A stretch of 64,000 nt of DNA from Candidatus Nanoarchaeia archaeon (GCA_035289925.1 DATDVR010000006.1:92018-156017), one strand, 5' to 3'. Positions 19,176 to 56,851 are shown, counted from the stretch's first letter. Program-made: numbers and translations. Notes: generated from the letters alone by a model not told the origin.

Positions 19176-19190
19176 GTTGGGTTTGTTAAT

Positions 19191-27817: not shown

Positions 27818-27866
27818 TTATGACTTTATAGTAACTACAAAATCACAAGCTTTATATACTAGTAAA

Positions 27867-28667
27867 ATGCTTATTTTTACCATGACGGCTGATACTTTAG
27901 TAAATAAAGAAGTAAAGTTATTCTACAATGGAAGCTTAGCTGATGCTCTAGAAAACTGCAATAAAGAAGACTATCAAGTATTATCAATGTCATAAATAGC
28001 AGATGCAAGAATTCAAGCTTCAAAAGAAGATCAATTATGGAGAAACTGGCTAAGCTCAACAAGCATCAGAGCAACAGGAAAGACAAAGCAAGGAAATGCA
28101 GTTGTAGTCTATGCTCATGTTCCAAATCATTTTTCAGAACCTAAAAACATAAGAAATGCAATAGAACAAGGTTTAGTTAATGGTGCTGGAAAATTACCAG
28201 AAAAAGAATTTCAAAGACTTTTAGACTTAAAAGATGATAAAAATGTATTTGTAATAGATTATAATGCTTTAAAAAGTTCAACTTCAGGTGTAATTCCAGT
28301 TTTAAAAGCTTTAGCTCATCCTCAGACAGTTCCATTTTTAGGCGGAGAGGAAAGAGCTCAAAAATATCTAGAAAAACATTCTCAATTTTATGGTAAAAAT
28401 ATTGGAGTCTGGCATTCAGATGATTTAAGGAAAGAACCATTAGGTCGCCTTTTGTTTGTTGGCTACTACGTCAACTACGGTCTTTATGGCGACTACGACC
28501 TTGACATCAATGGTAGATACGCTGGGGTACGTGCAGTCGGCGCGCAAAAATCCCCAAAGGAAATAAAAGCACCAACTTTGGAAGATATTACAAAAGAATT
28601 AAATCCTTTTGTTTTAGAGAAAGATAGGAAAGAAGTTCTAGAAATATTAAGGAAATACGTTAAATAA
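27867..28667 (+). pseudogene. DGR target gene copy 1 with in-frame TAA at codon 43
   Basis: Colinear with 44659..45459 (801 nt); CCA GAA changed to TCA TAA at 27990-27995. Confidence 0.88.
28446..28529 (+). repeat. DGR variable repeat VR1
   Basis: 84-nt match to TR; 10 mismatches, all at TR adenines. Confidence 0.95.
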
Positions 28668-28680
28668 TTTTTTCTTAACT

Positions 28681-29880
28681 TTATAGCATAAAATAAAGTA
28701 TTACTGGTAACAACAAACAGCCCATCAAATGATTTCTACCAAAACCTTTCAAAGCAGGTATTAAGCCGACCGAAGTTGAGATTACCAACACGAAAAAACC
28801 TAAGAAACCTGAGAAAACAAAGCTAAGAATTACAATCAATAAAATTATTGAAAGACAAAGTAACCTGTAATTTATTTTTGATATTAACTTTGAGAATTTT
28901 TTAGCGAAAAATAAAGTCAATATTGAAGCCAAACCAGAAGCAACTAAGGAAACTGCCACAAATATAATTAAATTTTGCAATGTTAGTGTCTGAATTATCT
29001 TTGAGACTATTACTATGGCCCCATTTCTTGCCTTTTCTATTGTAAATAACGCAATTATTGAGATAAACATGTTGACTGTGTTCATGCCGCCATTTAAAAT
29101 CAAGTAACCTTTGTCTCCTAAGTTTTTTGTAAATGAAGAACCTAAGATTGCGGCTTGTGAAGGACCTAAGCCAGGAAGAAAAGAACATAAGCCTGATGAA
29201 AAAACAGAGGTTAAAATTGCTTTTGCTGCTAAGCTTTTTTCTATTCTAGGAAAAATCTGGAACTGGTAAGGAATTTTTACCTTATCATTTATGCTTAGCA
29301 ATAAACCTGAAATGCCGAACAATCCCGAAAGCAATGGAAATAATGGATCTTCCAAATTTAAATTGAAAACTGTTAAACCCAAAATCCCTGAAAGAATAAA
29401 AATGAAAAAAGCAAAGAATTTTTGCCTACTTTCCTTCAAAATTAAGACTAAACAAGCTAAGATTAATAGATAGCCAATATATTTCTGTATTATTGAATAA
29501 AAATATTTAACATAAAATAACATTAATGGAGTCAATGCAGCTATCAAAATCAAAGAAATCAAGGAACCTATTGTCAACAGACTAACTGCTTCATATCCTT
29601 TGCCTTCTAGCAATAATCTATGGCCTGGCAAGACAGAAAGAACCTGCTCTGCGTCTGGAGCACCAAGGAAAACAGAGGGAATTGCATCGAGAAAAGTATG
29701 AGTTATTGCCATTGAAATAATTAAAATAGATAAAATCAATGGAGAAGTGAACTTCAACAAGAAAGGAGAAGAGGATAAAATAAGCAAAGAAACTAGATTG
29801 ATATGAATTCCTGGAGTCAAGCCAGTAAAACAGCCTAGAAAAATGCCAATTATTACTGCAATTAATATTTCAAATAACAT
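28681..29880 (-). CDS. TctA/DUF112 family membrane protein
   Basis: GLTPGIHIN, VLPGHRLLLEGKG, many TM helices. Confidence 0.8.
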   Translation of the reverse strand: MLFEILIAVIIGIFLGCFTGLTPGIHINLVSLLILSSSPFLLKFTSPLILSILIISMAITHTFLDAIPSVFLGAPDAEQVLSVLPGHRLLLEGKGYEAVSLLTIGSLISLILIAALTPLMLFYVKYFYSIIQKYIGYLLILACLVLILKESRQKFFAFFIFILSGILGLTVFNLNLEDPLFPLLSGLFGISGLLLSINDKVKIPYQFQIFPRIEKSLAAKAILTSVFSSGLCSFLPGLGPSQAAILGSSFTKNLGDKGYLILNGGMNTVNMFISIIALFTIEKARNGAIVIVSKIIQTLTLQNLIIFVAVSLVASGLASILTLFFAKKFSKLISKINYRLLCLSIILLIVILSFVFSGFLGFFVLVISTSVGLIPALKGFGRNHLMGCLLLPVILYFML

Positions 29881-29945
29881 GTAGATATTATTTATTTAGA
29901 ATTTAAGAAGATGAACCTTAAAAACCCGAAAAATATACAAAAAAA

Positions 29946-30290
29946 TCATAGTTTTTTTATTTCTGATGCTAAAATTTCTAGTTTGCCTTGGTATTCGCCA
30001 ACTTTTCCTACAACTTCCACGAAATCTCCTGTTGATATTTGGATGTCTTGCGAGAAAATAACTACTTTAATACTAGAAGTTACATCGCTAACCGTCATCA
30101 TAGTAGTTGATTGGGTTGATTTTACTGAAGAAACAAGGCCTTGAATCCTAACTTCCTTGTCTATTTGCAGCGAAGTTATCTCTGAAATCTTTGACAATGG
30201 AAGTTCTGTTCTCTCCACTATAAACAATAAAATTAATATGCCTATTAATGAAGTAAAAATAGCTATCTTTAGAAAAGTTTTTTCATTCAT
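29946..30290 (-). CDS. Membrane-anchored OB-fold protein
   Basis: N-terminal TM; VRIQGLV...GDFVEVVGKVGEYQGKLEI. Confidence 0.75.
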   Translation of the reverse strand: MNEKTFLKIAIFTSLIGILILLFIVERTELPLSKISEITSLQIDKEVRIQGLVSSVKSTQSTTMMTVSDVTSSIKVVIFSQDIQISTGDFVEVVGKVGEYQGKLEILASEIKKL

Positions 30291-30291
30291 C

Positions 30292-30885
30292 TTATCTATT
30301 GCCGTCTAATCTTGCCCACTTGCCTTCGCTGTTTCTACCATGAACTTGATAACTTTCTTTTCTTTCTCCAATAATGTAATTTCTGCATCCAACATAAGGT
30401 GAATAACCATTTGTAATAATGTTTGGCTGATTCCATTCTGGCGAGTTGATCTTAAATTTTCTTATTGCTTCTCTGAATTCTTTTAAACCTTCTCTTAATT
30501 GTTTTTTAACTCCAGTTAAACTTGATTCTTTTATTTCTCTTATGTCTATTGTACCGTTGACGCCTACAATGTCTAGTTCCCTTATTCTTTCTAAGTTTCC
30601 TTTCTTACCGCCTTTTCTTGTGTAGGTTACGTGAGTTGCAACAAAACGGTATTTCCCACTTTTTAGCATACACTCTGCAACTTCCCATACTATATTATCG
30701 TGCGGCAAACCTTGTAACCTTTCTCTAAAATATTTTGAATCTAATCGTTCTTCTAAATCAAATTCAATCCTATGATTTTCAGGTAATATTGGTACTTTTT
30801 TTGCAGCCTCGAGAATTAATTCTATTGGTATTTTTTCATCTCTAAAATAATTATGATATCTTACTGCGCTTAAACATGATGTCAA
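30292..30885 (-). CDS. Hypothetical protein, possible PD-(D/E)XK fold
   Basis: ELDIVG...IREIK pattern; start uncertain. Confidence 0.45.
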   Translation of the reverse strand: MTSCLSAVRYHNYFRDEKIPIELILEAAKKVPILPENHRIEFDLEERLDSKYFRERLQGLPHDNIVWEVAECMLKSGKYRFVATHVTYTRKGGKKGNLERIRELDIVGVNGTIDIREIKESSLTGVKKQLREGLKEFREAIRKFKINSPEWNQPNIITNGYSPYVGCRNYIIGERKESYQVHGRNSEGKWARLDGNR

Positions 30886-31040
30886 ATGATGCCCCCTCTT
30901 TTTTTAGAATTAGAAACCCCCAGAACCTCTTTTCCCAGGTCTTTAGGCATATAAATTACATGTCTAAACGCTTTATATACATTTATACACTGCAATAGTT
31001 ATTATAGTTCATAGAAAATTACAGAAAGTTTTATATTTGA

Positions 31041-32132
31041 ATGTATTTTCATTACTGCATGGATATACAAAATAAAGTTGAACTAATAAAATCTTTTGCT
31101 GAAGAAGTAGTTACAGAAGAGGAACTAGTAAAAGTTTTTGAAAATAATAATCATCCTATTGCATATGATGGTTTTGAGCCTTCTGGAGTAGCTCCAATTC
31201 ATTTTGGTTTACTTAGAGCAACAAATTTAAAAAATATGTTAAAAGCCGGAGTAAAATTTAAGTTATATTTAGCAGATTACTTTGCTTTTATTAATAATAA
31301 ACTCGGTGGTGATTTAGAAAACATTAGAACTGCTGGTAAATATTTTATTGAAGTTTGGAAAGCTTGTGGAATTGACATTAATAAAGTTGAAATAATTTGG
31401 GCAAAGGATTTGATGAATAGCATAGATTATTGGGGTAAGACTTTAAGTATTGCTAGACAAATTTCTCTTGAAAGGAATTTAAGAGCCGTAACAATAATGG
31501 GTAGAAAAGAAGGGGAAAAACTTAGTATGGGCCAGCTTTTTTACCCTTCTATGCAAGTAACCGATATTTTCATGATGGATGTTGATATTTGCCAATTGGG
31601 CATGGATCAAAGAAGAGCGAATATTCTTGCAAGAGAAGTAGCAGAAAGATTGAAATGGAAAAAACCTGTTGCAGCTCACCATCATATTTTGTTAGGTCTA
31701 CAAGGTTTACAAAAAAAGGAAACAATTGAAGAAACCATGGTTGCTTCTAAAATGTCCAAGTCTGATCCAAGATCGGCAATCTATATGCACGATAGTTTTG
31801 ATGAAATAAAAAGAAAAATAAATTCTGCTTATTGCCCTGCAAAAATTGAAGATGGAAATCCTCTTTTAGAATATCTTAAACACATTGTACTTAAGGAATT
31901 AAAAGAAATTAATATAGAAAGAGATTCTAAATTTGGTGGCGATATTAGTTTTGGTAATTATCAAGAATTAAGACATGCATACATTAATGGCGAAATACAT
32001 CCTGTTGACTTAAAAACCTGTGTTGTTAATGAATTGGAAAAATTGATTAAACCAGTAAGAGAGCATTTTGAGAAAAACAAGCAGGCAAGAGAACTTTATA
32101 CTAAAGTAAAAAACTTCCAAGTAACAAGATGA
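31041..32132 (+). CDS. tyrS: Tyrosine--tRNA ligase
   Basis: YDGFEPSG, GMDQRRA, KMSKS. Confidence 0.92.
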   Translation: MYFHYCMDIQNKVELIKSFAEEVVTEEELVKVFENNNHPIAYDGFEPSGVAPIHFGLLRATNLKNMLKAGVKFKLYLADYFAFINNKLGGDLENIRTAGKYFIEVWKACGIDINKVEIIWAKDLMNSIDYWGKTLSIARQISLERNLRAVTIMGRKEGEKLSMGQLFYPSMQVTDIFMMDVDICQLGMDQRRANILAREVAERLKWKKPVAAHHHILLGLQGLQKKETIEETMVASKMSKSDPRSAIYMHDSFDEIKRKINSAYCPAKIEDGNPLLEYLKHIVLKELKEINIERDSKFGGDISFGNYQELRHAYINGEIHPVDLKTCVVNELEKLIKPVREHFEKNKQARELYTKVKNFQVTR

Positions 32133-32635
32133 GATTGTTTATTGCAATAGATGTTAATTCTGAAGAAATAGATGGAGTTAAAGAGAGGTTTGAAATTGAT
32201 GGAGCAAGGGCTGATGGAAGCAAGCATTTGACTCTGAAGTTTCTAGGGGAGGTTGAAAATAATAAGTTAGGCAAGATTGTTGATGCTTTAAGCAAAGTTG
32301 AGTTTAAAGAATTTGAAATTAAAACAACTGATATTGGCGGATTCCCGAATTTGAAGAGGCCAAGAGTTATTTATCTTGGAATAAGGAGCGAGGAATTGAC
32401 TGATTTAATGAAGAAAATAGAAAAAATCCTGCCAGAATTCAAAGACAATAAGGAATTCAAACCACACCTGACTATAGCTAGAGTGAAATTTATCAAGGAT
32501 AATTTAAGAGAGTTAATTAGAAATATAAGAGTGAAAGAGAAGAAGTTTAAAATTAAGGAGTTTAAACTGTATGAAAGCAGATTTAATGGAAAGAGATTTG
32601 AGCATCATGCGATAAAAACATTTAACTGTATCTAG
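32129..32635 (+). CDS. thpR: RNA 2',3'-cyclic phosphodiesterase (2H)
   Basis: MRLFIAI, HLTL and HLTI motifs. Confidence 0.9.
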   Translation: MRLFIAIDVNSEEIDGVKERFEIDGARADGSKHLTLKFLGEVENNKLGKIVDALSKVEFKEFEIKTTDIGGFPNLKRPRVIYLGIRSEELTDLMKKIEKILPEFKDNKEFKPHLTIARVKFIKDNLRELIRNIRVKEKKFKIKEFKLYESRFNGKRFEHHAIKTFNCI

Positions 32636-33281
32636 AATCAATGATTTTCTTTATTTCTGAAGCCTTTTTTGGTCCTATCTTCTCTACTTTTTGCAGTTCT
32701 TCTTCAGATGCGTTGAAAACATTTTTAACAGACTTGAAATGCTTCAGCAAAGACTCTGCCAATGAGGAACCTATGCCTGGCAAGGACTGCAAAATGTAAA
32801 GCTGCTGTTCTTTTAACGTTAAAGGCTTTCTTGATTGCAATAGACTGATTGGAGTCCTGTGTTTTTCAATCCTTTTTGCAAGAATTTCTATGAAGGCGGC
32901 AGTATCTCGATAGTTTTTTGTGTAGATAATAGGAATCTGGAAGTCAACTGCTATTGTTGCCAGCATGCCTCGTATAGAATTTGGATGAAAATTACGTATC
33001 TTGTAGATGTTTTCTTCTCCTTCAATAATAAGCAAAGGTACTTGATAATGTTTTTTTATTTCTATCAACTGAGAAAGCAGTCTTTTGTCAATTATTGAGT
33101 TCAAGAAATCATTTGTAGTCTTTCTTTCTATGCCAACAGTTAAGATATTGCCGTGCAAATCTTTTGTTTGTACAAGATAATCTGCTATAACCAATTGTTT
33201 TACTTCAACATCAAACTCTTTTGCCAATTCCTTAATAATGCCAGAGCTTCTTTCCCTTTGGTCTGCTATTATTTTTATCAT
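32622..33281 (-). CDS. ERCC4/XPF nuclease with HhH
   Basis: DQRE, ERKTTNDF, LPGIG. Confidence 0.9.
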   Translation of the reverse strand: MIKIIADQRERSSGIIKELAKEFDVEVKQLVIADYLVQTKDLHGNILTVGIERKTTNDFLNSIIDKRLLSQLIEIKKHYQVPLLIIEGEENIYKIRNFHPNSIRGMLATIAVDFQIPIIYTKNYRDTAAFIEILAKRIEKHRTPISLLQSRKPLTLKEQQLYILQSLPGIGSSLAESLLKHFKSVKNVFNASEEELQKVEKIGPKKASEIKKIIDSRYS

Positions 33282-34822
33282 TGCAATTTAGCCTGCTTTT
33301 CTTTTTTTGTTTTTATGTTCAACAAAATATTTTTCATAAGCTTCTCTTTTCTCAATGAAGACCAATAGTAAGCTTCATCTCTTGTTTTTTTTGCCATCAA
33401 AAAGATAACTTTGCCTGGCTTTGTCCTTGCTGTCCTGCCTTGCCTTTGAATCTTTCTTAATTCTGACGGGATAGGCTCGTAAAAAACAACAGCTGCAACT
33501 TCTGGCAGGTCTAAACCCTCTTCCCCTACTGAAGACGCAACCAAGATGTTGAATTCATGATTCTTGAAAGCATCAATAATTGACTGCTGCTCGACCTGAT
33601 TTTGCCCTTTGTCCTGCCTGTCTGCCTGACCGACAAATCTTTTTGCTTTTATGCCTGCCAAGTTAAGTTCTCTTGCTATCTCTGCCACAGTATCACGGTA
33701 AGTTGCGAAGACAATTATCTTAGCTTCTTTGTTTTCTGAAATATCTTTCTTAATAATTTCAATCAACTTGATAATCTTAGGATGCTTTACTTTATTCTCT
33801 ATAAGTTTTTGTGTTAACTGCAGAGCTCTTTTTATGTCTGGATTTGCCAAAATAGTTTTTGCAGCCTTTGTTGTTTCAACTTCAAGTTTTTTCCAGTAAT
33901 TTTCTAAAGCACTGATTGTTTGTGTCTCAATCAAAGCTAAAGCATGTTCTACTTTTATTATTTGGGCTACTAAAGAGATGCCATAAAATGCTATTTTACT
34001 TCCAGAAGTTATTTCTGATTGAAATCTTTTTTGAAGCATCAATAAATCTTTTTTGTTTATGTATTTTACAGGCTTTGAGAAACCTAAATTTTGAAGCTTT
34101 TCCAGGTTTTGCTCGTAGACTTTCCTGATTATTGAAGCCAATTGAGTTATTTCCTGCGTCAACTCAATGCTGATCCATGAAATATCTTTCTTTTGAATGT
34201 AAGGAGAGACATCTTCATCATGCTCTGTCCTGATTTCTACAGCTTCAATTGCCAAATTGTTGCAGATTTCTTCTATTCTTTCCTTTGATGAGCCTGGAGA
34301 TGCAGTCAATGCAAGAATTCTTGGGAATTTGGATTGTTCTAAGTATTTTTTTACTATGAAAGTGTTTGCGTAATTTGCCCTTGAACGATGCGCTTCATCC
34401 AAGCAGATCAAAGAGAAGTTTTCCAAGCTAATCCTGTTGTTTTGCAAGTCAGATTCTATTGTTTGCGGAGTTGCAATAATTATTTTTGATTGGTCAAACA
34501 AGTCATGCCTCTTTGATGGGACTAATGAGCCTGTGAACAAAGCTATCTCTATGTTTGTAGTGTGCTGTTTGAACGTGTGAACGTGCTGGTTGCATAAAGG
34601 CTTTGTAGGAGCTGTGATAAGTATCTTTGATTCTGGGAATTTTTTCATTCTTTCAGAAGCAAGAAGCATTGCGATTGCTGTTTTTCCAATTCCTGTAGGC
34701 AGAACTACCAAAGTATTTTTATCTAGACAAGTCTTTAGAATATTCTGCTGGTAAATCCTTGGCGTAAAATTAGCTAGCTCCATAAGCCAGCTATTATGTA
34801 AAACTTTAAATAACTTTCTCAA
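33278..34822 (-). CDS. hef: Hef/FANCM-like SF2 helicase
   Basis: PTGIGKT, DEAH, TASPG, QRQGRTAR. Confidence 0.88.
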   Translation of the reverse strand: MRKLFKVLHNSWLMELANFTPRIYQQNILKTCLDKNTLVVLPTGIGKTAIAMLLASERMKKFPESKILITAPTKPLCNQHVHTFKQHTTNIEIALFTGSLVPSKRHDLFDQSKIIIATPQTIESDLQNNRISLENFSLICLDEAHRSRANYANTFIVKKYLEQSKFPRILALTASPGSSKERIEEICNNLAIEAVEIRTEHDEDVSPYIQKKDISWISIELTQEITQLASIIRKVYEQNLEKLQNLGFSKPVKYINKKDLLMLQKRFQSEITSGSKIAFYGISLVAQIIKVEHALALIETQTISALENYWKKLEVETTKAAKTILANPDIKRALQLTQKLIENKVKHPKIIKLIEIIKKDISENKEAKIIVFATYRDTVAEIARELNLAGIKAKRFVGQADRQDKGQNQVEQQSIIDAFKNHEFNILVASSVGEEGLDLPEVAAVVFYEPIPSELRKIQRQGRTARTKPGKVIFLMAKKTRDEAYYWSSLRKEKLMKNILLNIKTKKEKQAKLQ

Positions 34823-34833
34823 TTGGGGAAAGC

Positions 34834-35100
34834 ATGCTTGTAAAGGTATTAGGGCTGGTTGATTTAGTTGCAGGATTATTAATAGTTGGAAGCTGGTTCA
34901 ATTTCACGCCTTTATTCGGATGGTATGTTGCGCTATTTTTGCTGATTAAATCAATAATATACCTCAAAGAAATAATAAGCATAATGGATCTTTTAGCGGT
35001 CTTGTTTTTGATACTGGCTTTGTTAAATATAAACACAATCTTCAGCTGGATGTTTGCTCTTTGGTTGATACAGAAAGGTTTTTTCAGTTTGGTTGCCTAA
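34834..35100 (+). CDS. Small membrane protein
   Basis: 88 aa, hydrophobic throughout. Confidence 0.65.
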   Translation: MLVKVLGLVDLVAGLLIVGSWFNFTPLFGWYVALFLLIKSIIYLKEIISIMDLLAVLFLILALLNINTIFSWMFALWLIQKGFFSLVA

Positions 35101-35849
35101 GTGAATTCTACATAATAATAGTAAAGCACCAATAAAATTGCTGCAATCATCAATGAAAGAATTAAAGCTGTGAATAAATGCAGATAGATGATTAAGTAAT
35201 AGCAGCCTATTATGAAGGCAGCTCCAAATACGAATAAAGGCTTTGAGCCAAAGAAAGTTTCTGCCCCATCAAGTTTTGGCAATGGAATTATGTTTGATAA
35301 TGCGAAAGCAGTGCTGATTACTATTAAATTTGTTGTTATTGCAGTTGCTGGGAACATTTTTAATATTAAAGCAAACAACATTGCAGTCAAGGGACCTGTC
35401 AAGGCTATTTTTGCAGTCTCAAAGTCAGTTAAATGCGTATATTTTCTCCCTAACCTGTACATTGGATTTATTGAAATCAATGAAAGGCCTACTGCTGCAA
35501 ATTTCAACTGGCCTGAAGAAAGAATTACAATTAATATTGGAAGTATAAAGCCAAGATATAAGCTTTCTATGCCAAATGGAAGCTTGCTGAATTCCCTGCT
35601 TTTTGAAAATCCATACCTCTTGATTTTCCAAACACGATGTTCTGTTGTGCACCCAGACCTAGAAGCTATCAATTTTTGACCTAATTCTTGAACAACCAAT
35701 ACTATAAGTGAGAATAATGCAAACTTCAAGAAATTTAAAATCCAATATGAAAACATAAATGAAGATCTTCCATCATCAAAGCCAAAAACAAAACCCAAAA
35801 CTAACGCAGAAACTACAAGGTGTTTGACTTCTGTTTTATTGAATAACAT
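35097..35849 (-). CDS. M50/site-2 protease homolog with degenerate HExxH
   Basis: QELGQK in place of HELGHK; NIIPLPKLDG retained. Confidence 0.7.
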   Translation of the reverse strand: MLFNKTEVKHLVVSALVLGFVFGFDDGRSSFMFSYWILNFLKFALFSLIVLVVQELGQKLIASRSGCTTEHRVWKIKRYGFSKSREFSKLPFGIESLYLGFILPILIVILSSGQLKFAAVGLSLISINPMYRLGRKYTHLTDFETAKIALTGPLTAMLFALILKMFPATAITTNLIVISTAFALSNIIPLPKLDGAETFFGSKPLFVFGAAFIIGCYYLIIYLHLFTALILSLMIAAILLVLYYYYVEFT

Positions 35850-36502
35850 TTTAATAGCTCTACTATCGAATCTTCATGGCCTGCACCGACTATTGCAAGT
35901 ATCTTACCTTTATTGTGAAGCATCAAATTATATAAAGCTTTTGCCATAAATTCGTTTCTCTCAACAACCAATGTCAAGTAGAATGAAGGATATTTTTTCC
36001 TGAACTCTTCTGTCAATTCCTTTATTATTTTCTTGTGCGGAACTTTTTTTAGGTCAAAATCCGCCTTTGTCTTGAAGAACAAACTTAGAATTGTTTCAAA
36101 AACAAAGTTTATTTTTTCTTTCCATGTCATTCTCTTTGATAATTTTGCCAAAGTAATGTCGATGTCTTGGTCTATCAATGCTATCTTTATATTGTTTTCA
36201 TGCGCCAACTGGAAAGCTTTCTTCATTTCAGAGCCTGGAGAGACCCCAGATAATTTTCCAAGACTTTTTTCTATATAAGAACCAATCAAATTGAAGAAAT
36301 AACCTTTCAAACCTATCTTTCTTATGTCTTTTATAGATGTTTTTTGTTTTTTTTCAGAGAGTAATGCCCTCAAACGCTTGGAATCAAGCTCCAAAGCAAC
36401 TATTTTTGGCTTTATTTTGCTGATTAATGCTTCAACCTGGTTGACACTTTCCAATGCAATGTGCGATGAGCCTAACAGGCAAACGTTCTTGTATTTGAGC
36501 AT
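35813..36502 (-). CDS. TraB/PrgY family protein
   Basis: LGSSHI, VALELD, PGSEM, ERNEFMA, VGAGH. Confidence 0.88.
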   Translation of the reverse strand: MLKYKNVCLLGSSHIALESVNQVEALISKIKPKIVALELDSKRLRALLSEKKQKTSIKDIRKIGLKGYFFNLIGSYIEKSLGKLSGVSPGSEMKKAFQLAHENNIKIALIDQDIDITLAKLSKRMTWKEKINFVFETILSLFFKTKADFDLKKVPHKKIIKELTEEFRKKYPSFYLTLVVERNEFMAKALYNLMLHNKGKILAIVGAGHEDSIVELLKCYSIKQKSNTL

Positions 36503-36575
36503 ATTAAGCTAATATTGAAGGGCAAAATATTTAAATACAGCAGTTATTTAAAAAGCAAAGAAAGGAGGACTCAAA

Positions 36576-36863: not shown

Positions 36864-36896
36864 AGCTTTATATACAAAAAAAGAGGATAAAATAGT

Positions 36897-37448: not shown

Positions 37449-37450
37449 TA

Positions 37451-38029: not shown

Positions 38030-38030
38030 A

Positions 38031-39534: not shown

Positions 39535-39591
39535 TCAACACCTCTTAATAAAGCTCAAAGATAGAGAATATATAAAGCTTATGGCTATTTT

Positions 39592-39723
39592 GGCTCTGTT
39601 GAAAATCTCAGTTTAGTTGTAACATTTAAGCTATAATATTCTTCAATTTACTAGTGAGCGACTATTTATACGAACCTTCTATTGTAAAGAGATGTAGCTT
39701 TTCTAGACATTTTCAACAACACC
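39592..39723. mobile_element. 132-bp MITE copy 2, identical to copy 1
   Basis: 9-bp TSD GGCTATTTT at 39583-39591 and 39724-39732. Confidence 0.92.
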
Positions 39724-39725
39724 GG

Positions 39726-40322: not shown

Positions 40323-40387
40323 AAAGTTGATAATTAGTTGTTTTTTAAAAAGCTGTTGCTAGCTTAACCGAAATATTTATATACCTA

Positions 40388-44612
<4,225 letters not shown>

Positions 44613-44658
44613 TTACTTCATAGTAACTACAAAATCACAAGCTTTATATACTAGTAAA

Positions 44659-45459
44659 ATGCTTATTTTTACTATGACAGCTGATACTTTAGTAAATAAA
44701 GAAGTAAAGTTATTCTACAATGGAAGCTTAGCTGATGCTCTAGAAAACTGCAATAAAGAAGGCTATCAAGCATTATCAATGCCAGAAATAGCAGATGCAA
44801 GAATTCAAGCTTCAAAAGAAGATCAATTATGGAGAAACTGGCTAAGCTCAACAAGCATCAGAGCAACAGGAAAGACAAAGCAAGGAAATGCTGTCGTAGT
44901 TTATGCACATGTTCCAAATCATTTTTCAGAACCTAAAAACATCAGAACAGCAATAGAACAAGGCTTAGTTAATGGCGCTGGAAAATTACCACAGGAAGAA
45001 TTTCAAAGGCTTTTAGATTTAAAAGACGACAAAAAGGTATTTGTAATTGATTATAATAAATTAAAGAGTTCAACTTCAGATGTAATTCAAGTTTCTAAAG
45101 CTTTAAAGCATTCTCAAACAGTTCCATTTCTAGGTGGACAAGAAAGAGCTGAAAAATATCTAGAAAGACATTCTCAAGTTTATGGAAAAAATATTGGAGT
45201 CTGGCATTCAGACGATTTAAGAGATGAACCATTAGCTCGCCTTTTGTTTGTTGGCAACTACGTCAACTACGGTCTTGATGGCATCAGCGACCTTGTCCTC
45301 AATGGTAGTTTCGCTGGGGTACGTGCAGTCGGCGCGCAAAAATCTCCAGTGGAAATTAAAGCACCAACTTTGGAAGATATCTTAAAAGTTTCAAGGGATT
45401 TTGTTCCAAGGACATGCAGAGATGCTTTCAAAGAAGAAATAAGAAAACTTTATCAATAA
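44659..45459 (+). CDS. DGR target gene copy 2 (VR near C-terminus, probable CLec-like fold)
   Basis: Contains VR2; upstream of TR and RT; true start probably MTADTL at 44674. Confidence 0.92.
   Translation: MLIFTMTADTLVNKEVKLFYNGSLADALENCNKEGYQALSMPEIADARIQASKEDQLWRNWLSSTSIRATGKTKQGNAVVVYAHVPNHFSEPKNIRTAIEQGLVNGAGKLPQEEFQRLLDLKDDKKVFVIDYNKLKSSTSDVIQVSKALKHSQTVPFLGGQERAEKYLERHSQVYGKNIGVWHSDDLRDEPLARLLFVGNYVNYGLDGISDLVLNGSFAGVRAVGAQKSPVEIKAPTLEDILKVSRDFVPRTCRDAFKEEIRKLYQ
45238..45321 (+). repeat. DGR variable repeat VR2
   Basis: 13 mismatches to TR over 84 nt, all at TR adenines. Confidence 0.95.
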
Positions 45460-45663
45460 TTTTATATAATCGTTTTTTTCTTTAATATATGCTTTAGCAT
45501 AGCTTAGCTGATGAATAACTTTTAGTTATGAAGTTAAGGTTTGTTAGGCTACACGCTCTTTTACTAAGGCTGTAAAAAGCTATAAAATTCAGCTGCAACA
45601 TCTAGTAGCTAGTCGAAAACGTGAAGCAGCAGTGATATAACAAGTAAGAGAGCTAGCTTGCGT

Positions 45664-45747
45664 CGCCTTTTGTTTGTTGGCAACAACGACAACAACGGTC
45701 TTAATGGCAACAACGACCTTGACAACAATGGTAGATACGCTGGAATA
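45664..45747 (+). repeat. DGR template repeat TR
   Basis: Non-coding, rich in AAC/AAT/GAC triplets, immediately upstream of RT. Confidence 0.95.
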
Positions 45748-45756
45748 ACCTAACAA

Positions 45757-46850
45757 ATGCTAGAGCTTTTAACAATGAAGACTTACAATAATTTATGGAA
45801 GCAACTTTGCAGCTACACAAATCTTTTAATGGCTTTTAACAATGCTAAGAAAAGAAAGTCTAAAAAGGATTATGTCCTTAAATTTGAAAAAGACTTGGAT
45901 AAAAACTTAGAAGAACTAAGATTAGAACTGTTATTTCACACTTACAATCCAAAACCTTTAAGGACATTTATTTTAAGGGACCCTAAAACAAGAAAAATCT
46001 CCAAGTCAGATTTTAGGGACAGGATAGTTCATCATGCCTTGTGCAATATTTTAGAGCCTATATTAAGCAAACCCTTCATTCATGATTCCTACGCAAATAG
46101 AAAGGGCAAAGGGAATCTAAAGGCTTTGAATAGATTTGATTATTTTAAAAGAAAGGTAAGCAAAAATAATAATAAAAATTGCTATGTCTTGAAAGCTGAC
46201 ATTAAACATTATTTTGATGAAGTTCCTCATGAAGTTTTATTGAATATCTTAAAGAAAAACATTAAAGATGCAAAGATTATTTGGCTAATAAGCAAGATAT
46301 TAAGCAATTTCAATTCTAGAGTAAAAGGAATAGGAATGCCCCTAGGAAATTTAACATCACAGTTCTTCGCTAATATTTATCTTAATGAATTAGACCAGTT
46401 TGTAAAGCATAAACTTAAAGTAAAATATTATATTAGATATGTTGATGATTTTGTCATTTTTGATTCATCTCAAGAAAAATTACTCGAGGGGGGGGGGCGA
46501 TTAACGATTTTTTAAAAGAAAGTTTGAAGTTAGAATTGCATCCAAATAAATCTAAGATAATAAACCTTGATAAAGGCATTAATTTTCTAGGTTTTAGGAT
46601 TTTTTATTACCATAAGCTTCTAAGAAAAGTAAACAAGAGAAAATTGCTAAAAAGAATGAAAAAGTACAAGGATCTGTATGATTCTAAAAAAATTGATTAT
46701 GACAAGATTTATTGCTCTTTCTGCGGCTGGAAGGGCTATGCTAAAAATGCAAATACCTTTAATCTAAGAAAAGAAGTAATTAAATTTCTTGATAAATACT
46801 TTCCAGGAGAAATATCTACGGGAGAATTAAATAAATACTTAAAATTATAA
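45757..46850 (+). pseudogene. DGR reverse transcriptase, frameshifted at G10 (46488-46497)
   Basis: RDRIVHH, GMPLGNLTSQFFANIYL, YVDD; downstream frame INDFLKESLKLELHPNKS...INFLGFRI. Confidence 0.9.
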
Positions 46851-46851
46851 T

Positions 46852-47721: not shown

Positions 47722-47803
47722 AAAATTGAAAGAAAATTAGTGTATTTAAAACATACTGTTATAGCATAGTTAAGTTTATAATTTTAAAAAGTATTGCTAA
47801 TGC

Positions 47804-50813: not shown

Positions 50814-50836
50814 ATTATAATAGTGAGAATTAAGCT

Positions 50837-51484
50837 TTAAATAAGTTTTGCGTTTGTCTCTAATTTTATTGCCCTTGGCTTGAACATGAAAGCATAATTT
50901 GAGTCAAAATAACCACAACGCATCTTGTCTAAAGGAATTCTAGTCCTGTTTGATAACATCAAGGCATAAAAATATACCTGAGTTGAAGCATATTTTTCTT
51001 TTAAGGCATTTGGCTTGTAATCCCAAACCCAAACATTATCGTTTTCAACTCTTAGAACATCTATATGCCCCGTCAAAGGCTGGATTGTGTTGAATATATT
51101 TACAAAATCTGGTATTTCGTCATGCTGAGACCACAATGGTATTTCTATTGCAACAGTTTTGTCATCATTTTCCAACATGAAGTATTGGACTTTCAAATGA
51201 TTGCTAGAATATCTCTTGCTGTTTTCTTCCAAGCCTAGCTTTGCCAACTGTGAAACTTCATGGCCTTGAACTTCTATCATGTCAAATGGAACCTTGAACT
51301 TCAAAGCAGAGCTTCTTGGACCGCCATTGAAAAATTGGTTAGGACAACTAGTGAACATATCTTTCAAGTATCTCTGCAAAGGCGTCAAACCATTGCATAA
51401 TTTATCTGTTTTATTAAAATGGACAGTATAAGGATAGAAACCTCCGCTGTGATTGAGGTTTAAACTTTTTATGATGAGAAACAC
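50837..51484 (-). CDS. PD-(D/E)XK (Cas4-like) nuclease domain protein
   Basis: GHIDVL...WDYKP...QVYFYALML. Confidence 0.7.
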   Translation of the reverse strand: MFLIIKSLNLNHSGGFYPYTVHFNKTDKLCNGLTPLQRYLKDMFTSCPNQFFNGGPRSSALKFKVPFDMIEVQGHEVSQLAKLGLEENSKRYSSNHLKVQYFMLENDDKTVAIEIPLWSQHDEIPDFVNIFNTIQPLTGHIDVLRVENDNVWVWDYKPNALKEKYASTQVYFYALMLSNRTRIPLDKMRCGYFDSNYAFMFKPRAIKLETNAKLI

Positions 51485-51486
51485 CT

Positions 51487-51981
51487 CTATTTTTTTATTA
51501 AATATCTTTTATTATCTAAATCTGTAAACTGGTCTGCTGCTTCCTTCAATTTTGACGAGCAGCTCCTTCCGAAAGCCATGACTTCTAATCTGCAGCCCAT
51601 TGCTCTTTTTACATGCTGCAATAAATCAACATAATCTCCGTCGCCTGAAACTAAAATTACTGTGTCTAGTTTTGGAGCTAATCCAATAATGTCCATGCAG
51701 ATTCCTACATCCCAGTCACCTTTTTTAGCACCGCCATAGAAAATTTGCAAATCTTTTGCTTTGACTTCATAACCTATATGGGATAAAGCATCGAAGAAAT
51801 TCTTTTCTTCACCTACATCTGCCTTGATTACATAAGCAATCGCTCTTATAAAATTCCTATCTGCTATTGCCTGCTTCAATATTTCCTTGAAATTGACTTT
51901 AGAATTATGCAATTGTTTTGCAGAATAATACATGTTCTGAACGTCTACAAACACACCTACTCTTTGAGCCTTTGACTGCAT
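51487..51981 (-). CDS. NYN domain (LabA/DUF88) protein
   Basis: FVDVQN, KGDWDVG, SGDGDY. Confidence 0.9.
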   Translation of the reverse strand: MQSKAQRVGVFVDVQNMYYSAKQLHNSKVNFKEILKQAIADRNFIRAIAYVIKADVGEEKNFFDALSHIGYEVKAKDLQIFYGGAKKGDWDVGICMDIIGLAPKLDTVILVSGDGDYVDLLQHVKRAMGCRLEVMAFGRSCSSKLKEAADQFTDLDNKRYLIKK

Positions 51982-52059
51982 ATGCTTTAATATTTTTAGG
52001 TAGAATATAAAGGTTTTGATATAGAAAGATTTTAATATCTGTTAGTATCTTGGAATTGT

Positions 52060-52440
52060 ATGGAACTTAGAAATGCTGAAATGCCTGAAATTCTAATTGG
52101 TGGTTATTTAATTACTAGATATAGCCTTGGCGGAACCGTTGTTGCTAAAATTACAAAAAAACATATTGATGAATTTGGAACAAAAAATGGTCTTATGGGG
52201 ATACAAGGTGATTTTGGAATTGAAGACGTTATAATCCATTTGCCTGAGGAAGTTCAAGAATTTAAAACTAATCTGGATGTTTTAATTTACGAAGTTGATG
52301 GTGTATATGTTCCTGAAAGCAAAAAAAATCTCTTGCCTTCTTTATCTGAAAATCAGAATTATAAACGTAGCTTAGAAGGCTTGGAAAAACCTCATCAGGT
52401 CATGACTAAAAGTAAACTTGAACAGATAGCATCTGAATAG
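52060..52440 (+). CDS. Hypothetical protein
   Basis: 126-aa ORF with TATA upstream. Confidence 0.5.
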   Translation: MELRNAEMPEILIGGYLITRYSLGGTVVAKITKKHIDEFGTKNGLMGIQGDFGIEDVIIHLPEEVQEFKTNLDVLIYEVDGVYVPESKKNLLPSLSENQNYKRSLEGLEKPHQVMTKSKLEQIASE

Positions 52441-52482
52441 TTTTTAATAACTTTTATAAATAAGGCAATACTTTTTCTTACT

Positions 52483-53493
52483 ATGGGTGTAAAGCTTACT
52501 GGTCTGCTTCCTAAAAAAGAGCTGAGTTTTGACGATTTAAAGAACAAGAGGATAGTAGTTGATTTTTCTAATTCAATCTATCAGTTTATTAGCTCAATAA
52601 GGCAGCCTGATGGAACTCCATTGATGGACAGCCAGGGAAGAGTTACAAGCCATCTGATGGGGATATGGACAAGATTCATGAACTTGATAAGAAAAGATGT
52701 AAAATTAATCATAGTTCTTGACGGAAAAGCTCCGATATTAAAAATCAAAGAGCAGGAAGAAAGGGCTTTTAGAAAAGAAATTGCAAAAGAGAAATTCCAG
52801 CAAGCAAAAGATGAGGAAGACATTGAAGGCATGGCGAAATATGCAAAGCAAAACCTTAGAGTTTCAAAGGAAATGATAAATGAAAGCAGAGAACTTATGG
52901 AAGCAATGGGACTGCCAGTAATACAAGCGCCTTCTGAAGCTGATGCACAGATGTCTTTCATTGTTGAAAGAGGAGATGCATGGGCTGCTGCGACAACAGA
53001 CGTTGATCCATTATTGCATGGGTGCCCTAGATTGGTTACTAACTTGACATTAAGCCAGAAAAGAAGATTACCATCAGGAAAAGTTGTGAATATAACGCCA
53101 GAACTTATTGAATTGAAAGAGGTTTTGTCAAATTTAGGCTTGAATCAAGACCAATTGATTGCATTAAGTATATTAGTTGGCACAGATTACAATGAGGGCA
53201 TAGAGAGAGTTGGACCAAAAACAGCATTAAAATTAGTGAAGCAGCATCATGATTTTGAAACATTGTTCAAGGAAGTGAAAGCTGACTTCAACTGGAAGCA
53301 GATATATGCTGTGTTCAAGTCAATGCCGATAATGAAAAACTATCAATTGAAATGGAATGAATTGGATGTTGATAAAGTAAAAAAGATACTTGTAGACAGA
53401 CATGATTTTTCAGAAGAAAGAGTTGATTCAAACTTGAGAAAAACTGAAAAGAAAATAGACAAGGCTCAAAAAGGACTAGGAGATTTTTTCTAA
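52483..53493 (+). CDS. fen: Flap endonuclease 1
   Basis: MGV start, QPDGTPLMDSQGRVTSHL, APSEADAQ, GTDYN. Confidence 0.96.
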   Translation: MGVKLTGLLPKKELSFDDLKNKRIVVDFSNSIYQFISSIRQPDGTPLMDSQGRVTSHLMGIWTRFMNLIRKDVKLIIVLDGKAPILKIKEQEERAFRKEIAKEKFQQAKDEEDIEGMAKYAKQNLRVSKEMINESRELMEAMGLPVIQAPSEADAQMSFIVERGDAWAAATTDVDPLLHGCPRLVTNLTLSQKRRLPSGKVVNITPELIELKEVLSNLGLNQDQLIALSILVGTDYNEGIERVGPKTALKLVKQHHDFETLFKEVKADFNWKQIYAVFKSMPIMKNYQLKWNELDVDKVKKILVDRHDFSEERVDSNLRKTEKKIDKAQKGLGDFF

Positions 53494-53494
53494 A

Positions 53495-54385
53495 ATGGAA
53501 TGGTTTTTTTACGCTTTGATATCTGCTATAGCATTTGGATGCTATTATCTTCTGCTTAAAAAAAATCTAGCAAGGGAACATGCATTTGTGTATCTTGCTT
53601 TCTATTCTTTTGTAATTGCAATGATATCTTTAGTTTTTTACAAGCAAGTAGTTTTACCAACTTCTTTATTGCAGGCGTTTCTGCTGTTGCTTGATGGATT
53701 TTTCCTTGCATGCTTTTTTTTATTTATGACTTATGCTTACAAAAATCTTGAAGGAAGTGAAGTATCTCCTTTAGGAAACCTGAGCCTGCTACTTACAATA
53801 CTCTTAAGCGTATTAATTCTAGGAGAAACACTAACTTTTTTGGACATTTTAGGGATATTTTTCATGATTGCTGGTGTTTATCTGCTTGAAATTGGGGTCA
53901 AAATAAAGAATTTTGGTATTGTGTTAAAGGATAAACATAGAAAATACCTTATTTATATAATAATTGGATTGATATTTTCTTCATTGACTTCAATAATAGA
54001 AAAAATTGTCTTAAGTCCAGAAGTCTTGGGACTTCCCATCCCATCTACAGATCCTGTAAGCTTTCATGTAATAACAAGATTTGTGATATTCTTCTTTTTT
54101 ATTCCTGTTGCAGCACTTAGGCCTAACTTTGTTCAAGGGATTAAGCATGGCTATAAAAATGTAGGATTTGGCGTTTTGATTGCCGCTGCTATATATACAA
54201 TTGCAAACATATTATATTTTAAAGCAATGGATCTTGGAAAAGTATCTCATGTTATACCTGTTGCCGCACTTTCAAGCTTATTTGTAACTATAGTTGGCGG
54301 GACATTGTTCCATGAGCATAGATTGAAGCAAAAAATTATTGCATGCCTAGTAATAATATTCGGAGTCTGGCTCATAGTGATGTGA
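53495..54385 (+). CDS. EamA/DMT family transporter
   Basis: About ten TM helices in two repeats. Confidence 0.82.
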   Translation: MEWFFYALISAIAFGCYYLLLKKNLAREHAFVYLAFYSFVIAMISLVFYKQVVLPTSLLQAFLLLLDGFFLACFFLFMTYAYKNLEGSEVSPLGNLSLLLTILLSVLILGETLTFLDILGIFFMIAGVYLLEIGVKIKNFGIVLKDKHRKYLIYIIIGLIFSSLTSIIEKIVLSPEVLGLPIPSTDPVSFHVITRFVIFFFFIPVAALRPNFVQGIKHGYKNVGFGVLIAAAIYTIANILYFKAMDLGKVSHVIPVAALSSLFVTIVGGTLFHEHRLKQKIIACLVIIFGVWLIVM

Positions 54386-54386
54386 A

Positions 54387-54983
54387 ATGATAAAAAGAAT
54401 AGTATTTGATAATGGAGGAGTAATGGTAAAAGTGTCTTCAAAGTATTTTCTGCCATATTATGCCAGAATGCTTAAAATACCATTAAAAAAATTAGAGCAT
54501 GTCTATTGGCAACTGTCAACTGAACTGGATGTTGGAAAAGAGAGCGAGAAAGAATTTTATAGAAAACTATTGAAACATGTTAACAGAAAGTATGACTATA
54601 AGAAACTATTGAAAGTTAGATATTCTTTGATAAAATTTCTGCCAGGCACTTTGGACATTGTGAAAAAACTTAAAAAGAAGTACAAGTTGGCTATGCTCAA
54701 CAATGAGTACAAGGAATGTATGAATCATCTCAAGAAAAAATACAATTATTTCAGTTATTTTCAACCAAGAATTACTTCTTCAGAAGTTGGAGTAAGAAAA
54801 CCTGAAGCTAAGATATATAAGATAATGCTAAAAAAACTCAGGATAAAACCTAGCGAATGCCTTTTTCTTGACGACTTGCAGCTGAATGTCAATGCTGCTA
54901 AAAAAATTGGAATAAAAACTATTCACTTTAAGAATGCAAAACAGCTTAGAAAAGAACTTAATAAATTTGGGATAGAAGTATGA
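54387..54983 (+). CDS. HAD family phosphatase
   Basis: FDNGGV, RKPEAKIY, FLDD. Confidence 0.88.
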   Translation: MIKRIVFDNGGVMVKVSSKYFLPYYARMLKIPLKKLEHVYWQLSTELDVGKESEKEFYRKLLKHVNRKYDYKKLLKVRYSLIKFLPGTLDIVKKLKKKYKLAMLNNEYKECMNHLKKKYNYFSYFQPRITSSEVGVRKPEAKIYKIMLKKLRIKPSECLFLDDLQLNVNAAKKIGIKTIHFKNAKQLRKELNKFGIEV

Positions 54984-55213
54984 AAGTTAAAGTGTACACC
55001 ATGAAGGACTGCATGGCATGCAAAGAAACTGTATCTTGGTTGAAGAAAAACAAAATTAAATTTGATGAAATAGATGTTACTTTTGACAATGAAGCACAGG
55101 ATTATTTAAAAAGCAAAGTGGGGCATAGCTTTGTACCTATAATTGAAGTTGATGGAACCATTTTAGATCCAACTAAAGCTTGGTTTGAAAAACTAAAGGA
55201 AATATTTAAATGA
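54980..55213 (+). CDS. Glutaredoxin-like protein
   Basis: CMAC motif, FVP, 77 aa. Confidence 0.82.
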   Translation: MKVKVYTMKDCMACKETVSWLKKNKIKFDEIDVTFDNEAQDYLKSKVGHSFVPIIEVDGTILDPTKAWFEKLKEIFK

Positions 55214-56019
55214 CAAATATCAAAGAAGCATTGGCTGAGAAATTAACTAAGAAAGAAATAAACCTATTGCCTACTTCTTTTGATGCTATTGGAAGCATAG
55301 CTATTTTTAATGATTTTTCTAAGAAATTAAGAAGAAAAGAGAAGATGATTGCTGAAACATTGATGAAGTTGAACAAGAATATCAAGACTGTTGCTAAAAA
55401 AACTAAAAAATATTCTGGGAAGTTCAGATTAGCCAAGATAAAAGTGATTGCTGGAAGGAAAACCAAGGAAACTTTGCATAAAGAAAATGGAGTTATGCTA
55501 AGATTAGATGTTGAGCAATGTTATTTTTCTCCTAGGACTGCAAATGAAAGGTTGAGAATTGCTAAACTAGTCAAAAATGACGAAAGCATACTTGTTTTTT
55601 TCTCTGGAGTTGCGCCTTTTCCTTGCGTCATTGCTAAAAATTCAAAAGCAAAGGATATCTATGGAATTGAATTGAACAAAAAAGCCAACGAATATGGTCT
55701 TGAGAATGTTAAATTGAATAAATTAAAAAATGTTAAACTGTTTAATGGCGATGTTAAAAAATTAGTGCCCAGGATAATTGGAAAATTTGATAGGATTCTA
55801 CTTCCTTTACCTAAAGATGCTGAAAAATATCTAAAATTAGCCATCACTAAAATTAAAAAAAATGGAGTTATACATCTTTACAGATTTGCAAGCGAGAATG
55901 ATTTTAAAAAAATAACTAAAAAATATAAAACTAAATTTAAAAGTGTTAAATTAATCAAATGCGGGCAATTTGCACCAGGGATATATAGAATTTGCTTGGA
56001 TTTAATTAAATTTAAATAA
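55210..56019 (+). CDS. Trm5/Taw2 (Met-10+) tRNA methyltransferase family
   Basis: YFSPRTANER, FSGVAPF, FDRILLPLP. Confidence 0.85.
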   Translation: MTNIKEALAEKLTKKEINLLPTSFDAIGSIAIFNDFSKKLRRKEKMIAETLMKLNKNIKTVAKKTKKYSGKFRLAKIKVIAGRKTKETLHKENGVMLRLDVEQCYFSPRTANERLRIAKLVKNDESILVFFSGVAPFPCVIAKNSKAKDIYGIELNKKANEYGLENVKLNKLKNVKLFNGDVKKLVPRIIGKFDRILLPLPKDAEKYLKLAITKIKKNGVIHLYRFASENDFKKITKKYKTKFKSVKLIKCGQFAPGIYRICLDLIKFK

Positions 56020-56068
56020 TACTTACTCTATAGTAACTACAAAATCACAAGCTTTATATACTAGTAAA

Positions 56069-56851
56069 ATGCTTATTTTTACCATGACAGCTGATACTTT
56101 AGTAAATAAAGAATTAAAGTTATTCTACAGTAACAGATTAGCTGATGCTCTAGAAAACTGCCAAGAAGCAGGCTATAAACCATTATCAATGCCAGAAATA
56201 GCAGATGCAAGAATTCAAGCTAAAAAAGAAGATCAATTATGGAGAAACTGGCTAAGCTCAACAAGCATCAGAGCAACAGGAAAGACAAAGCAAGGAAATG
56301 CAGTTGTAGTTTATGCACATGTTCCAAATCATTTTTCAGAACCTAAAAACATCAGAACAGCAATAGAACAAGGATTGATAAATGGCGCTGGAAGATTACC
56401 ACAGGAAGAATTTCAAAGACTTTTAGAATTAAAAGATGATAAAAAGGTATTTGTAATAGATTATAATAAATTAAAGAGTTCAACTTCAGATGTAATTCAA
56501 GTTTCTAAAGCTTTAAAACATCCTCAAACAGTTCCATTTTTAGGTGGACAAGAAAGAGCAGAAAAATATCTAGAAAAACATTCTCGAGTTTATGGTAAAA
56601 ATATTGGAGTCTGGCATTCAGATGATTTAAGAGATGAACCATTAGCTCGCCTTTTGTTTGTTGGCAACTACGTCGACAGCGGTCTTAATGGCTTCAACTT
56701 CCTTGACCTCTATGGTAGATTCGCTGGGGTACGTGCAGTCGGCGCGCAAAAATCTCCAAAGGAAATAAAGACACCAACTTTAGAAGACATTTTAAATTTA
56801 ACAGCAAAACTTTCTCCTGAAGATAGAGAAGAGCTTAAAAAAAGATTATAA
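56069..56851 (+). CDS. DGR target gene copy 3 (remote)
   Basis: Paralog of 44659..45459; contains VR3. Confidence 0.92.
   Translation: MLIFTMTADTLVNKELKLFYSNRLADALENCQEAGYKPLSMPEIADARIQAKKEDQLWRNWLSSTSIRATGKTKQGNAVVVYAHVPNHFSEPKNIRTAIEQGLINGAGRLPQEEFQRLLELKDDKKVFVIDYNKLKSSTSDVIQVSKALKHPQTVPFLGGQERAEKYLEKHSRVYGKNIGVWHSDDLRDEPLARLLFVGNYVDSGLNGFNFLDLYGRFAGVRAVGAQKSPKEIKTPTLEDILNLTAKLSPEDREELKKRL
56648..56731 (+). repeat. DGR variable repeat VR3
   Basis: 14 mismatches to TR, 13 at adenines and one G-to-T. Confidence 0.93.

Follow-up and report, generated by a model that had tools for sequence, protein, structure and literature searches.

The 64,000-nt stretch of DNA described here (the window, by which we mean this whole stretch; Candidatus Nanoarchaeia archaeon GCA_035289925.1, DATDVR010000006.1:92018-156017) carries a diversity-generating retroelement (DGR) that extends over positions 27,867-56,851. 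It combines one template repeat (TR) and one reverse transcriptase (RT) gene with three paralogous target genes, T1, T2 and T3, which contain the variable repeats VR1, VR2 and VR3, respectively. The RT gene is interrupted by a run of ten guanines at which its reading frame is lost. We consider it probable that this is a chromosomal DGR of the Nanoarchaeota/AvpA type whose RT is gated by slippage at the G run, with mutagenesis off in most cells.

All three VRs have undergone adenine-specific rewriting in the past. A repeat search of the window returned a family of four + strand copies at 28444-28525, 45236-45317, 45662-45743 and 56646-56727. The TR is the copy at 45662, recognizable by its many AAC codons and its position immediately 5' of the RT gene. 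In full, the TR occupies 45662-45747 (+) and contains 14 A-containing codons, nine of which are AAY; it also carries, at 45741-45746, the sequence TGGAAT, which is the TR form (IMH*) of the initiation of mutagenic homing (IMH) site. VR1 (28444-28529), VR2 (45236-45321) and VR3 (56646-56731) are all on the + strand. Counted in register over TR 45664-45747 against VR1 28446-28529, VR2 45238-45321 and VR3 56648-56731, they differ from the TR at 10, 13 and 14 positions, respectively. Every mismatch in VR1 and VR2 falls at a TR adenine, as do 13 of those in VR3, the exception being G45715->T; summed over the three VRs, 36 of 37 mismatches are at TR adenines, and these are the same numbers as in the original prediction. 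Two of the adenine mismatches in each VR (45744 and 45745; GGAATA in the TR versus GGGGTA), six in total, are invariant in all copies and represent the fixed distinction between IMH and IMH* rather than mutagenesis. The mutagenic differences that remain number 8 in VR1, 11 in VR2 and 11 in VR3 (plus one non-A), and 30 of these 31 fall on the 24 adenines found among 80 positions (binomial P = 4.5e-15), which bears out the earlier identification of the element as a DGR with adenine-specific TR-to-VR differences. The VRs also differ from one another, as previously claimed; between paralogues the differences are at 10-12 of 24 A sites versus 1-2 of 58 non-A sites. The coding potential of the TR corresponds to approximately 10^13.7 protein variants per gene, and AGA is the sole codon that can be mutated to a stop. 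One TR with three paralogous targets had been anticipated and was found. The further description of these targets as dispersed applies to the two that are non-adjacent, with VR1 17.2 kb upstream and VR3 11.0 kb downstream, but not to VR2, which is only 426 bp from the TR and whose gene, T2, ends 203 bp before it.

The window holds one of three such cassettes in the genome. A genome search for more VRs had been proposed in the original prediction, and when the 916-kb assembly of this groundwater DPANN archaeon (16 contigs, 33% GC, 88.5% complete) was searched, three DGR cassettes were found, comprising three RTs, three TRs and seven VRs. Cassette 1 consists of the TR described above (TR1) and VR1-3, all within the 64-kb window. 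Cassette 2 has its TR (TR2) on contig 5, with one adjacent VR and one VR on contig 12, and cassette 3 has its TR (TR3) on contig 7, with one adjacent VR and one VR on contig 6. Comparison across the genome shows that TR1 and TR2 share both IMH and IMH*; cross-templating between them was considered and rejected, as each VR matches its own TR at diagnostic non-A sites. The TR, IMH, IMH* and a structured RNA motif, RT-16, are intact in all cassettes. At TR3 (contig C7:27640-27790), a 24-nt insert, TAAAAATAAATTAGACGAGTCTTC, which could form a small hairpin, lies between the A-rich part and IMH*. The insert is missing from both TR3 VRs, and a similar insert is present in one related cassette of another genus.

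RT-16 (Rfam RF03019) is located at 45493-45661 (+) and abuts the 5' end of the TR. The match scores 91.2 bits against a gathering score of 50 and covers model positions 1-158 of 158. RT-16 also precedes the TR in cassettes 2 and 3 and in each of the 18 related cassettes examined in other genera, always above the gathering score, whereas it was published as an orphan RNA located near reverse transcriptase genes (PMC5737381). A TATA box at 45461-45468 (+), approximately 25 nt upstream of the start of RT-16, is the putative promoter of an RT-16/TR/RT transcript, and its spacing suggests that the transcript starts at the RT-16 motif. On the other side of the TR, 28 nt separate its end from the start codon of the RT. 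One contig, k141_2746084 of ENA ERZ27254845, tracks the window as far as the IMH* sequence GGAATAAC, has a junction at 45749, and continues as the reverse complement of 45935-45802. A trace of primed cDNA was considered for this fold-back and rejected, as it is a single contig, has only 6 nt of microhomology at the junction, and involves a complementarity that cassettes 2 and 3 do not share; a chimera is the probable explanation, although the place of the junction is curious.

In the targets, the IMH is TGGGGT plus a GC-rich 29-mer, and all three VRs have it. This 29-nt tail, GGGGTACGTGCAGTCGGCGCGCAAAAATC, is found on the + strand at 28524-28552 (VR1), 45316-45344 (VR2) and 56726-56754 (VR3) and is missing from the TR. 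The tail and its absence from the TR had been noted before. It is the known IMH/IMH* arrangement, since the pair TGGGGT and TGGAAT has already been described for Nanoarchaeota DGRs (PMC4372165). The coding sequence continues for 46, 46 and 40 codons after the tail in T1, T2 and T3, respectively, in line with the earlier estimate of about 40. The tail follows five VRs belonging to the TR1 and TR2 families, and its 20-nt core, GTACGTGCAGTCGGCGCGCA, has five exact copies in the genome, two of which are in the TR2 targets, a second target family with a protein identity of only approximately 32%. No copy of the 29-nt tail contains a single substitution, synonymous changes included, and the codons that it uses are rare in this 33% GC genome (CGT 3%, GCG 4% and GGG 11%). 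Its exactness in distant targets and its use of rare codons indicate that the IMH tail is selected at the DNA level.

Translation of the RT into a single protein requires a change of frame. Its N-terminal part (45775-46515, +) contains motifs 1-5, including LGNLTSQ and YVDD, which agree with the DGR-clade forms [I/L/V]GxxxSQ (motif 4) and YxDD, and ends at a stop in the wrong frame. This part matches RVT_1 (2.3e-20), and the closest solved relative of the RT is bRT of the Bordetella phage DGR (8UB7, E 4.8e-31). The frame changes at a G10 homopolymer at 46488-46497 (+), and one added G or a -1 slip restores it. The C-terminal part, which begins AINDFLKESLKLELHPNKSKI, occupies 46497-46850 (+) in the -1 frame; it carries on the group II RT/maturase model with no gap, at positions 233-330, the N-terminal part ending at position 225. 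The original prediction had taken the cassette as working. Here, however, the RT is frameshifted at G10 and, as described below, T1 is a null allele.

The same feature is found in every RT of the genome. Runs of eight or more G or C residues occur only three times in the whole 916 kb, as G10, G10 and G11, each of them in a different one of the three RT genes and at the same codon; the number of runs of ten expected by chance in the genome is estimated at approximately 0.03. All three RTs are out of frame, RT1 needing one additional G, RT2 two and RT3 one, and none of the three genes has a lesion other than the G run. No match to MutS_V or NucS, and hence no sign of these mismatch repair proteins, was found in the genome, which is 88.5% complete. 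Other-family RTs that are 67-70% identical to RT1 have ordinary residues (for example, YKRE) in place of the run, whereas RT3, which is equally diverged from RT1, keeps it; the paralogous RTs are approximately 65% identical. Because equally distant RTs of other families have no run, the G tract belongs specifically to this lineage and has persisted through approximately 35% protein divergence.

If the true run were G11 or G12, the RT would be intact and its broken frame would be a miscalled homopolymer. Long G runs are error-prone, and one contig (L014) ends inside the run. Nevertheless, the G10 of RT1 is constant in the assemblies of at least six independent samples, made with several assemblers (MEGAHIT k141, scaffolded ANAN16, JGI and Logan). 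In addition, the G11 of RT3 has been found twice, as it recurs in a second metagenome (a metagenome scan for the G-run context returned the RT3 locus of the same organism alone), and the three RTs would need three separate corrections that are not the same (+1, +2 and +1). We regard a sequencing or assembly artefact as very unlikely.

Simple repeats also interrupt RTs elsewhere. Of 20 RT homologues sampled from other genera, all with a frame break near residue 180, 19 have that break precisely at a simple repeat. The repeat is G8-12 in 11 of these, (AG/GA)n in seven and (CT)9 in one, and both out-of-frame states are represented. These homologues were picked for being broken and so show what breaks RTs, not how often. 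The codon at which the tract lies is approximately 237 in the lineage studied here versus approximately 180 in many other Nanoarchaeia RTs, and if the gating reading is true this would imply repeated convergent acquisition of gates. As a separate observation, most poly-G runs in the RT genes are followed by CGA (Gn-CGA-A/T), a codon that makes up 2% of Arg codons in the genome.

These data also bear on whether the out-of-frame arrangement might be the normal structure of the gene, with a fixed fraction of ribosomes undergoing a programmed -1 shift on G GGG GGG. The G run is a perfect slippery site whose consensus length does not change from sample to sample. A -1 shift is what RT1 and RT3 need, and each has the very rare CGA (2% of Arg) as the zero-frame codon that follows the run. 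RT2, however, needs +1 or -2, no conserved or stable downstream structure was found, and the RTs of other genera show both frame states and have (AG)n in place of poly-G at the equivalent break. Programmed -1 ribosomal frameshifting is thus in our view unlikely.

Several observations weigh against a gated and functional element. The G run is invariant at the consensus level, RT1 being always G10, and the consensus of all three VRs is the same in all sister assemblies, both of which fit a silent relic and a switch that is rarely on equally well. A metagenome scan with VR anchors gave no matches, near-identical records apparently being withheld. No candidate for Avd (or HRDC) was found: the interval from target to RT contains no suitable open reading frame, and housekeeping genes lie on either side. 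The Nanoarchaeota DGRs described earlier have no clear Avd either (PMC4372165), and the lack of Avd therefore does not exclude membership of the DGRs. The hairpin or cruciform (GRA or GNRA loop) expected just after the IMH is weak, with a 5-bp stem (CGTGC/GCGCG, including one T-G pair), a 5-nt loop and a z of approximately 0. Finally, divergence between VRs at non-A sites is 1-2 of 58 versus 6-10% in the gene body, a difference that is no more than suggestive (Fisher P 0.07-0.24).

The invariance of the VRs and of G10 across assemblies, in particular, would be expected if all three DGRs were dead, the G runs having slipped under relaxed selection as the most mutable spot of each gene and the VR differences being fossils. 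Likewise, all three RTs are out of frame, and approximately 15 billion proteins contain no in-frame full-length allele of RT1 or RT2, the nearest full-length relative being 72% identical. T1 carries a nonsense allele, and other genomes also contain AvpA-like genes interrupted by in-frame stops. On the other hand, each RT lacks any lesion beyond the run, and the TR, IMH, IMH* and RT-16 are intact in all cassettes. In a genome of 33% GC that lacks mismatch repair, runs of G10-11 would be expected to decay or disappear, yet they have been kept at one codon in paralogues that are approximately 65% identical. Furthermore, a run that has slipped can slip back, such that "dead" and "switchable" are physically one object. 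We consider a relic to be a real, though doubtful, possibility.

A different objection is that T2 is the only live target and that T1 and T3 are older duplicates that preserve, frozen, the VR state of the cassette-adjacent gene. The consensus VRs are static, and similarity at non-A sites of the VRs does not significantly exceed that of the gene body. Because this homogenization is not significant, the main grounds for T1 and T3 still being served are the A-specific pattern and the conserved IMH. Even so, the 29-nt tail is without substitution despite its rare codons, its 20-nt core is exact in five copies that include very distant paralogues, and the differences between paralogous VRs are concentrated at A sites (10-12/24 versus 1-2/58). 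Action in trans on non-adjacent targets is, moreover, established for DGRs (PMC5758913). Restriction of activity to T2 is, on balance, quite unlikely.

We return to the reading in which the RT is gated. By analogy with the Bordetella phage paradigm and the described Nanoarchaeota DGRs (PMC4372165), the RT-16/TR/RT transcript would be reverse-transcribed with misincorporation opposite A, and the cDNA would replace the VR of any gene that bears an IMH, the TR itself being protected by IMH*. Each homing event would re-draw approximately 14 residues of a lectin-fold pocket, a repertoire of approximately 10^13-10^14 variants for each gene. Given that the consensus of each sample has an out-of-frame RT, most cells would be expected to carry out no mutagenesis. 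The frame could be restored by replication slippage, which would constitute a heritable phase switch, or by transcriptional or translational slippage on the G run. We put forward tentatively, as a possibility to be taken seriously, that all three RTs and the seven variable genes are held behind slippage-prone poly-G tracts that are kept by selection, making each cassette an independently switchable mutator. If the RTs are gated in this manner, most cells would keep proven receptor variants, and a small minority, either heritable or at the level of transcription, would re-draw several paralogues at once.

The target genes are T1 (27867-28667, +), T2 (44659-45459, +), which is adjacent to the cassette, and T3 (56069-56851, +), which is intact; their proteins are 83-85% identical. 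Homology between the paralogues begins approximately 45 nt upstream of the first ATG, and each target has its own copy of the promoter. The TATA box of T1, TTTATATA, is at 27851-27858 (+), and the same block of approximately 55 nt precedes T2 (44643-44650) and T3 (56053-56060). The promoter core, AAGCTTTATATA, recurs before many genes of the genome. The spacing between TATA box and ATG favors a leaderless start at the second ATG, which would place the starts at 27882 for T1 and, as the probable starts of T2 and T3, at 44674 and 56084. The neighbors of the targets are housekeeping genes encoding the PolD large subunit, Cdc48 and a TYW2/Trm5-type methyltransferase.

Neither Pfam nor NCBIfam has a family for the targets, which were identified by sequence search of the PDB alone. 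T2 matches the sequence of the AvpA crystal structure (5ioo_A; PDB 5IOO) with an E of 6.4e-89, residues 13-266 being aligned to 5-255. The original prediction had proposed structure prediction, and an AlphaFold model of T2 (pLDDT 92) has the AvpA fold, matching 5ioo_A in Foldseek with an E of 7e-30, a target-normalized TM of 0.96 and an rmsd of 1.0 A over 209 residues. On the basis of this sequence match and the predicted structure, we assign the targets to the AvpA family, with a C-type-lectin fold; they had previously been considered a hypervariable ligand-binding family of unknown function. AvpA is a monomeric protein of this fold in which the variable residues line a putative binding site, and the crystal shows no order in its C-terminal tail, residues 211-256 (PMC5006420). 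In the alignment the VR corresponds to AvpA residues of approximately 181-210, and the T2 model is of low confidence at 221-227, after which two helices are predicted. As originally stated, the targets have no signal peptide; none of their 19-residue stretches reaches the hydrophobicity of a signal peptide or membrane helix, the maximum Kyte-Doolittle value being 0.96. The cytoplasmic location given in the original prediction is a putative one drawn from this absence. Of 401 genomes sampled from the class, only 17 have AvpA-like genes, and the present genome, with five, has the largest family; several of the copies in these 17 contain in-frame stops.

In the window, T1 is a null allele with an in-frame TAA at 27993-27995. 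Four clustered substitutions at 27970, 27979, 27990 and 27993 (G>A, C>T, C>T and G>T) are all that distinguishes this assembly from two sister assemblies, compared over 20.8 kb and 10.9 kb, respectively, and T1 is intact in both (protein P0130). The cluster is unusually tight, with four changes in 24 bp of an otherwise identical 20.8 kb. Other assemblies show rearrangements among the targets. A 45.6-kb contig of JGI 3300002502 joins PolD and the 5' part of T1, including the stop, to the 3' part of T2, VR2, the TR and the RT, a junction that would remove 16.8 kb of essential genes. Elsewhere, internal segments appear exchanged between T2 and T3. The T1/T2 join and the T2/T3 swaps (proteins P0125-P0127 and P0132) reflect either mis-assembly across paralogues that are 91-93% identical or real recombination. 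Two variant contigs, L017 and L018 (protein P0124), were considered as a new VR allele and rejected, as they depart from the TR at non-A positions and continue into sequence that is unrelated; we take them to be another strain or a chimera. Differences in L019 were likewise rejected as VR variation, as they are located in a poor contig end and not in the VR.

Other features of the window were observed in passing. A 137-nt intergenic sequence is repeated exactly at 19040-19176 and 39588-39724, 20.5 kb apart and on the same strand, and has no match in Rfam. The Cdc48 gene upstream of T2 (40806-44612) contains an intein with a LAGLIDADG domain, and the AAA/RFC-like genes upstream of T1 also bear inteins according to precomputed Pfam matches.

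As a multi-target DGR of the AvpA type, the element is a further example of a described system, to which it adds a clean and complete case with one TR, three paralogues, a shared promoter and a shared IMH. Two features are new relative to the literature that we searched. The first is RT-16 as the constant 5' partner of the TR in archaeal DGRs that lack Avd, which offers a concrete and testable role for this RNA. The second is that all RTs of the genome are interrupted by poly-G at one conserved codon position, and that this recurs from sample to sample. If the run is a gate, then a targeted mutator would itself be under a stochastic switch, with implications for how organisms with minimal genomes keep the cost of hypermutation in check. 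This is relevant, too, to the scoring of DGR "activity" in metagenomes, in which RTs with a broken frame are generally thrown out.

Homopolymeric contingency loci are a feature of Campylobacter, Neisseria and Haemophilus, in which poly-G runs of 10-11 set the reading frame and length polymorphism is the defining feature. The element described here shares with them an intragenic poly-G run of 10-11 that sets the frame and a genome without detectable mismatch repair. It is unlike them in that the gated gene is itself a mutator and in that the run length is invariant at the consensus level, where no difference in repeat length between populations was seen (G10 in at least six assemblies, G11 in two).

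The closest described relatives are the DUSEL4 Nanoarchaeota DGRs and AvpA (PMC4372165, PMC5006420, 5IOO). The targets are approximately 59% identical to AvpA and share its C-type-lectin fold, and both systems have a C-terminal VR followed by a tail of approximately 45 residues, the IMH TGGGGT and IMH* TGGAAT, a TR directly before the RT, no clear Avd, and several DGRs in one tiny genome. The DUSEL4 DGRs also had "fragmentary" extra VR genes that were suspected as extra targets (PMC4372165). In contrast to DUSEL4, one TR in our genome matches three AvpA paralogues, two of which are 11-17 kb away, and there are five AvpA copies (the largest number in the 401 genomes). The RT is broken at a poly-G run, of which there is no mention in PMC4372165 or PMC5006420, and the GRA-loop hairpin described for DUSEL4 is not evident. 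With the DGR of Bordetella phage BPP-1 (bRT-Avd, 8UB7 series), the element shares adenine mutagenesis, the IMH/IMH* logic and a structured RNA that flanks the TR. Unlike BPP-1, it has no Avd, its structured RNA (RT-16) is 5' of the TR and not in the TR-RT spacer, and it is chromosomal and multi-target with a frame-broken RT. RT-16 itself, an orphan in its published description (RF03019; PMC5737381), is the 5' neighbor of a DGR TR in 21 of the 21 cassettes that we examined.

The original prediction also stated that multi-target DGRs had been reported before, and they are indeed well documented, non-adjacent targets included: 45 of 372 DGRs in one survey are of the multi-target or non-adjacent type, and a Treponema DGR has seven non-adjacent targets (PMC5758913). 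The same survey (Wu et al. 2018) described the DGRs of the candidate phyla radiation and DPANN as mostly single-target. With multi-target DGRs of the Treponema denticola type, our element has in common a single TR and RT that serve several genes with an IMH in trans, including genes at a distance of kilobases, and distinct VRs in paralogous targets. It differs from the multi-target DGRs of that survey (PMC5758913) in belonging to an archaeal lineage and in having targets of the AvpA subclass.

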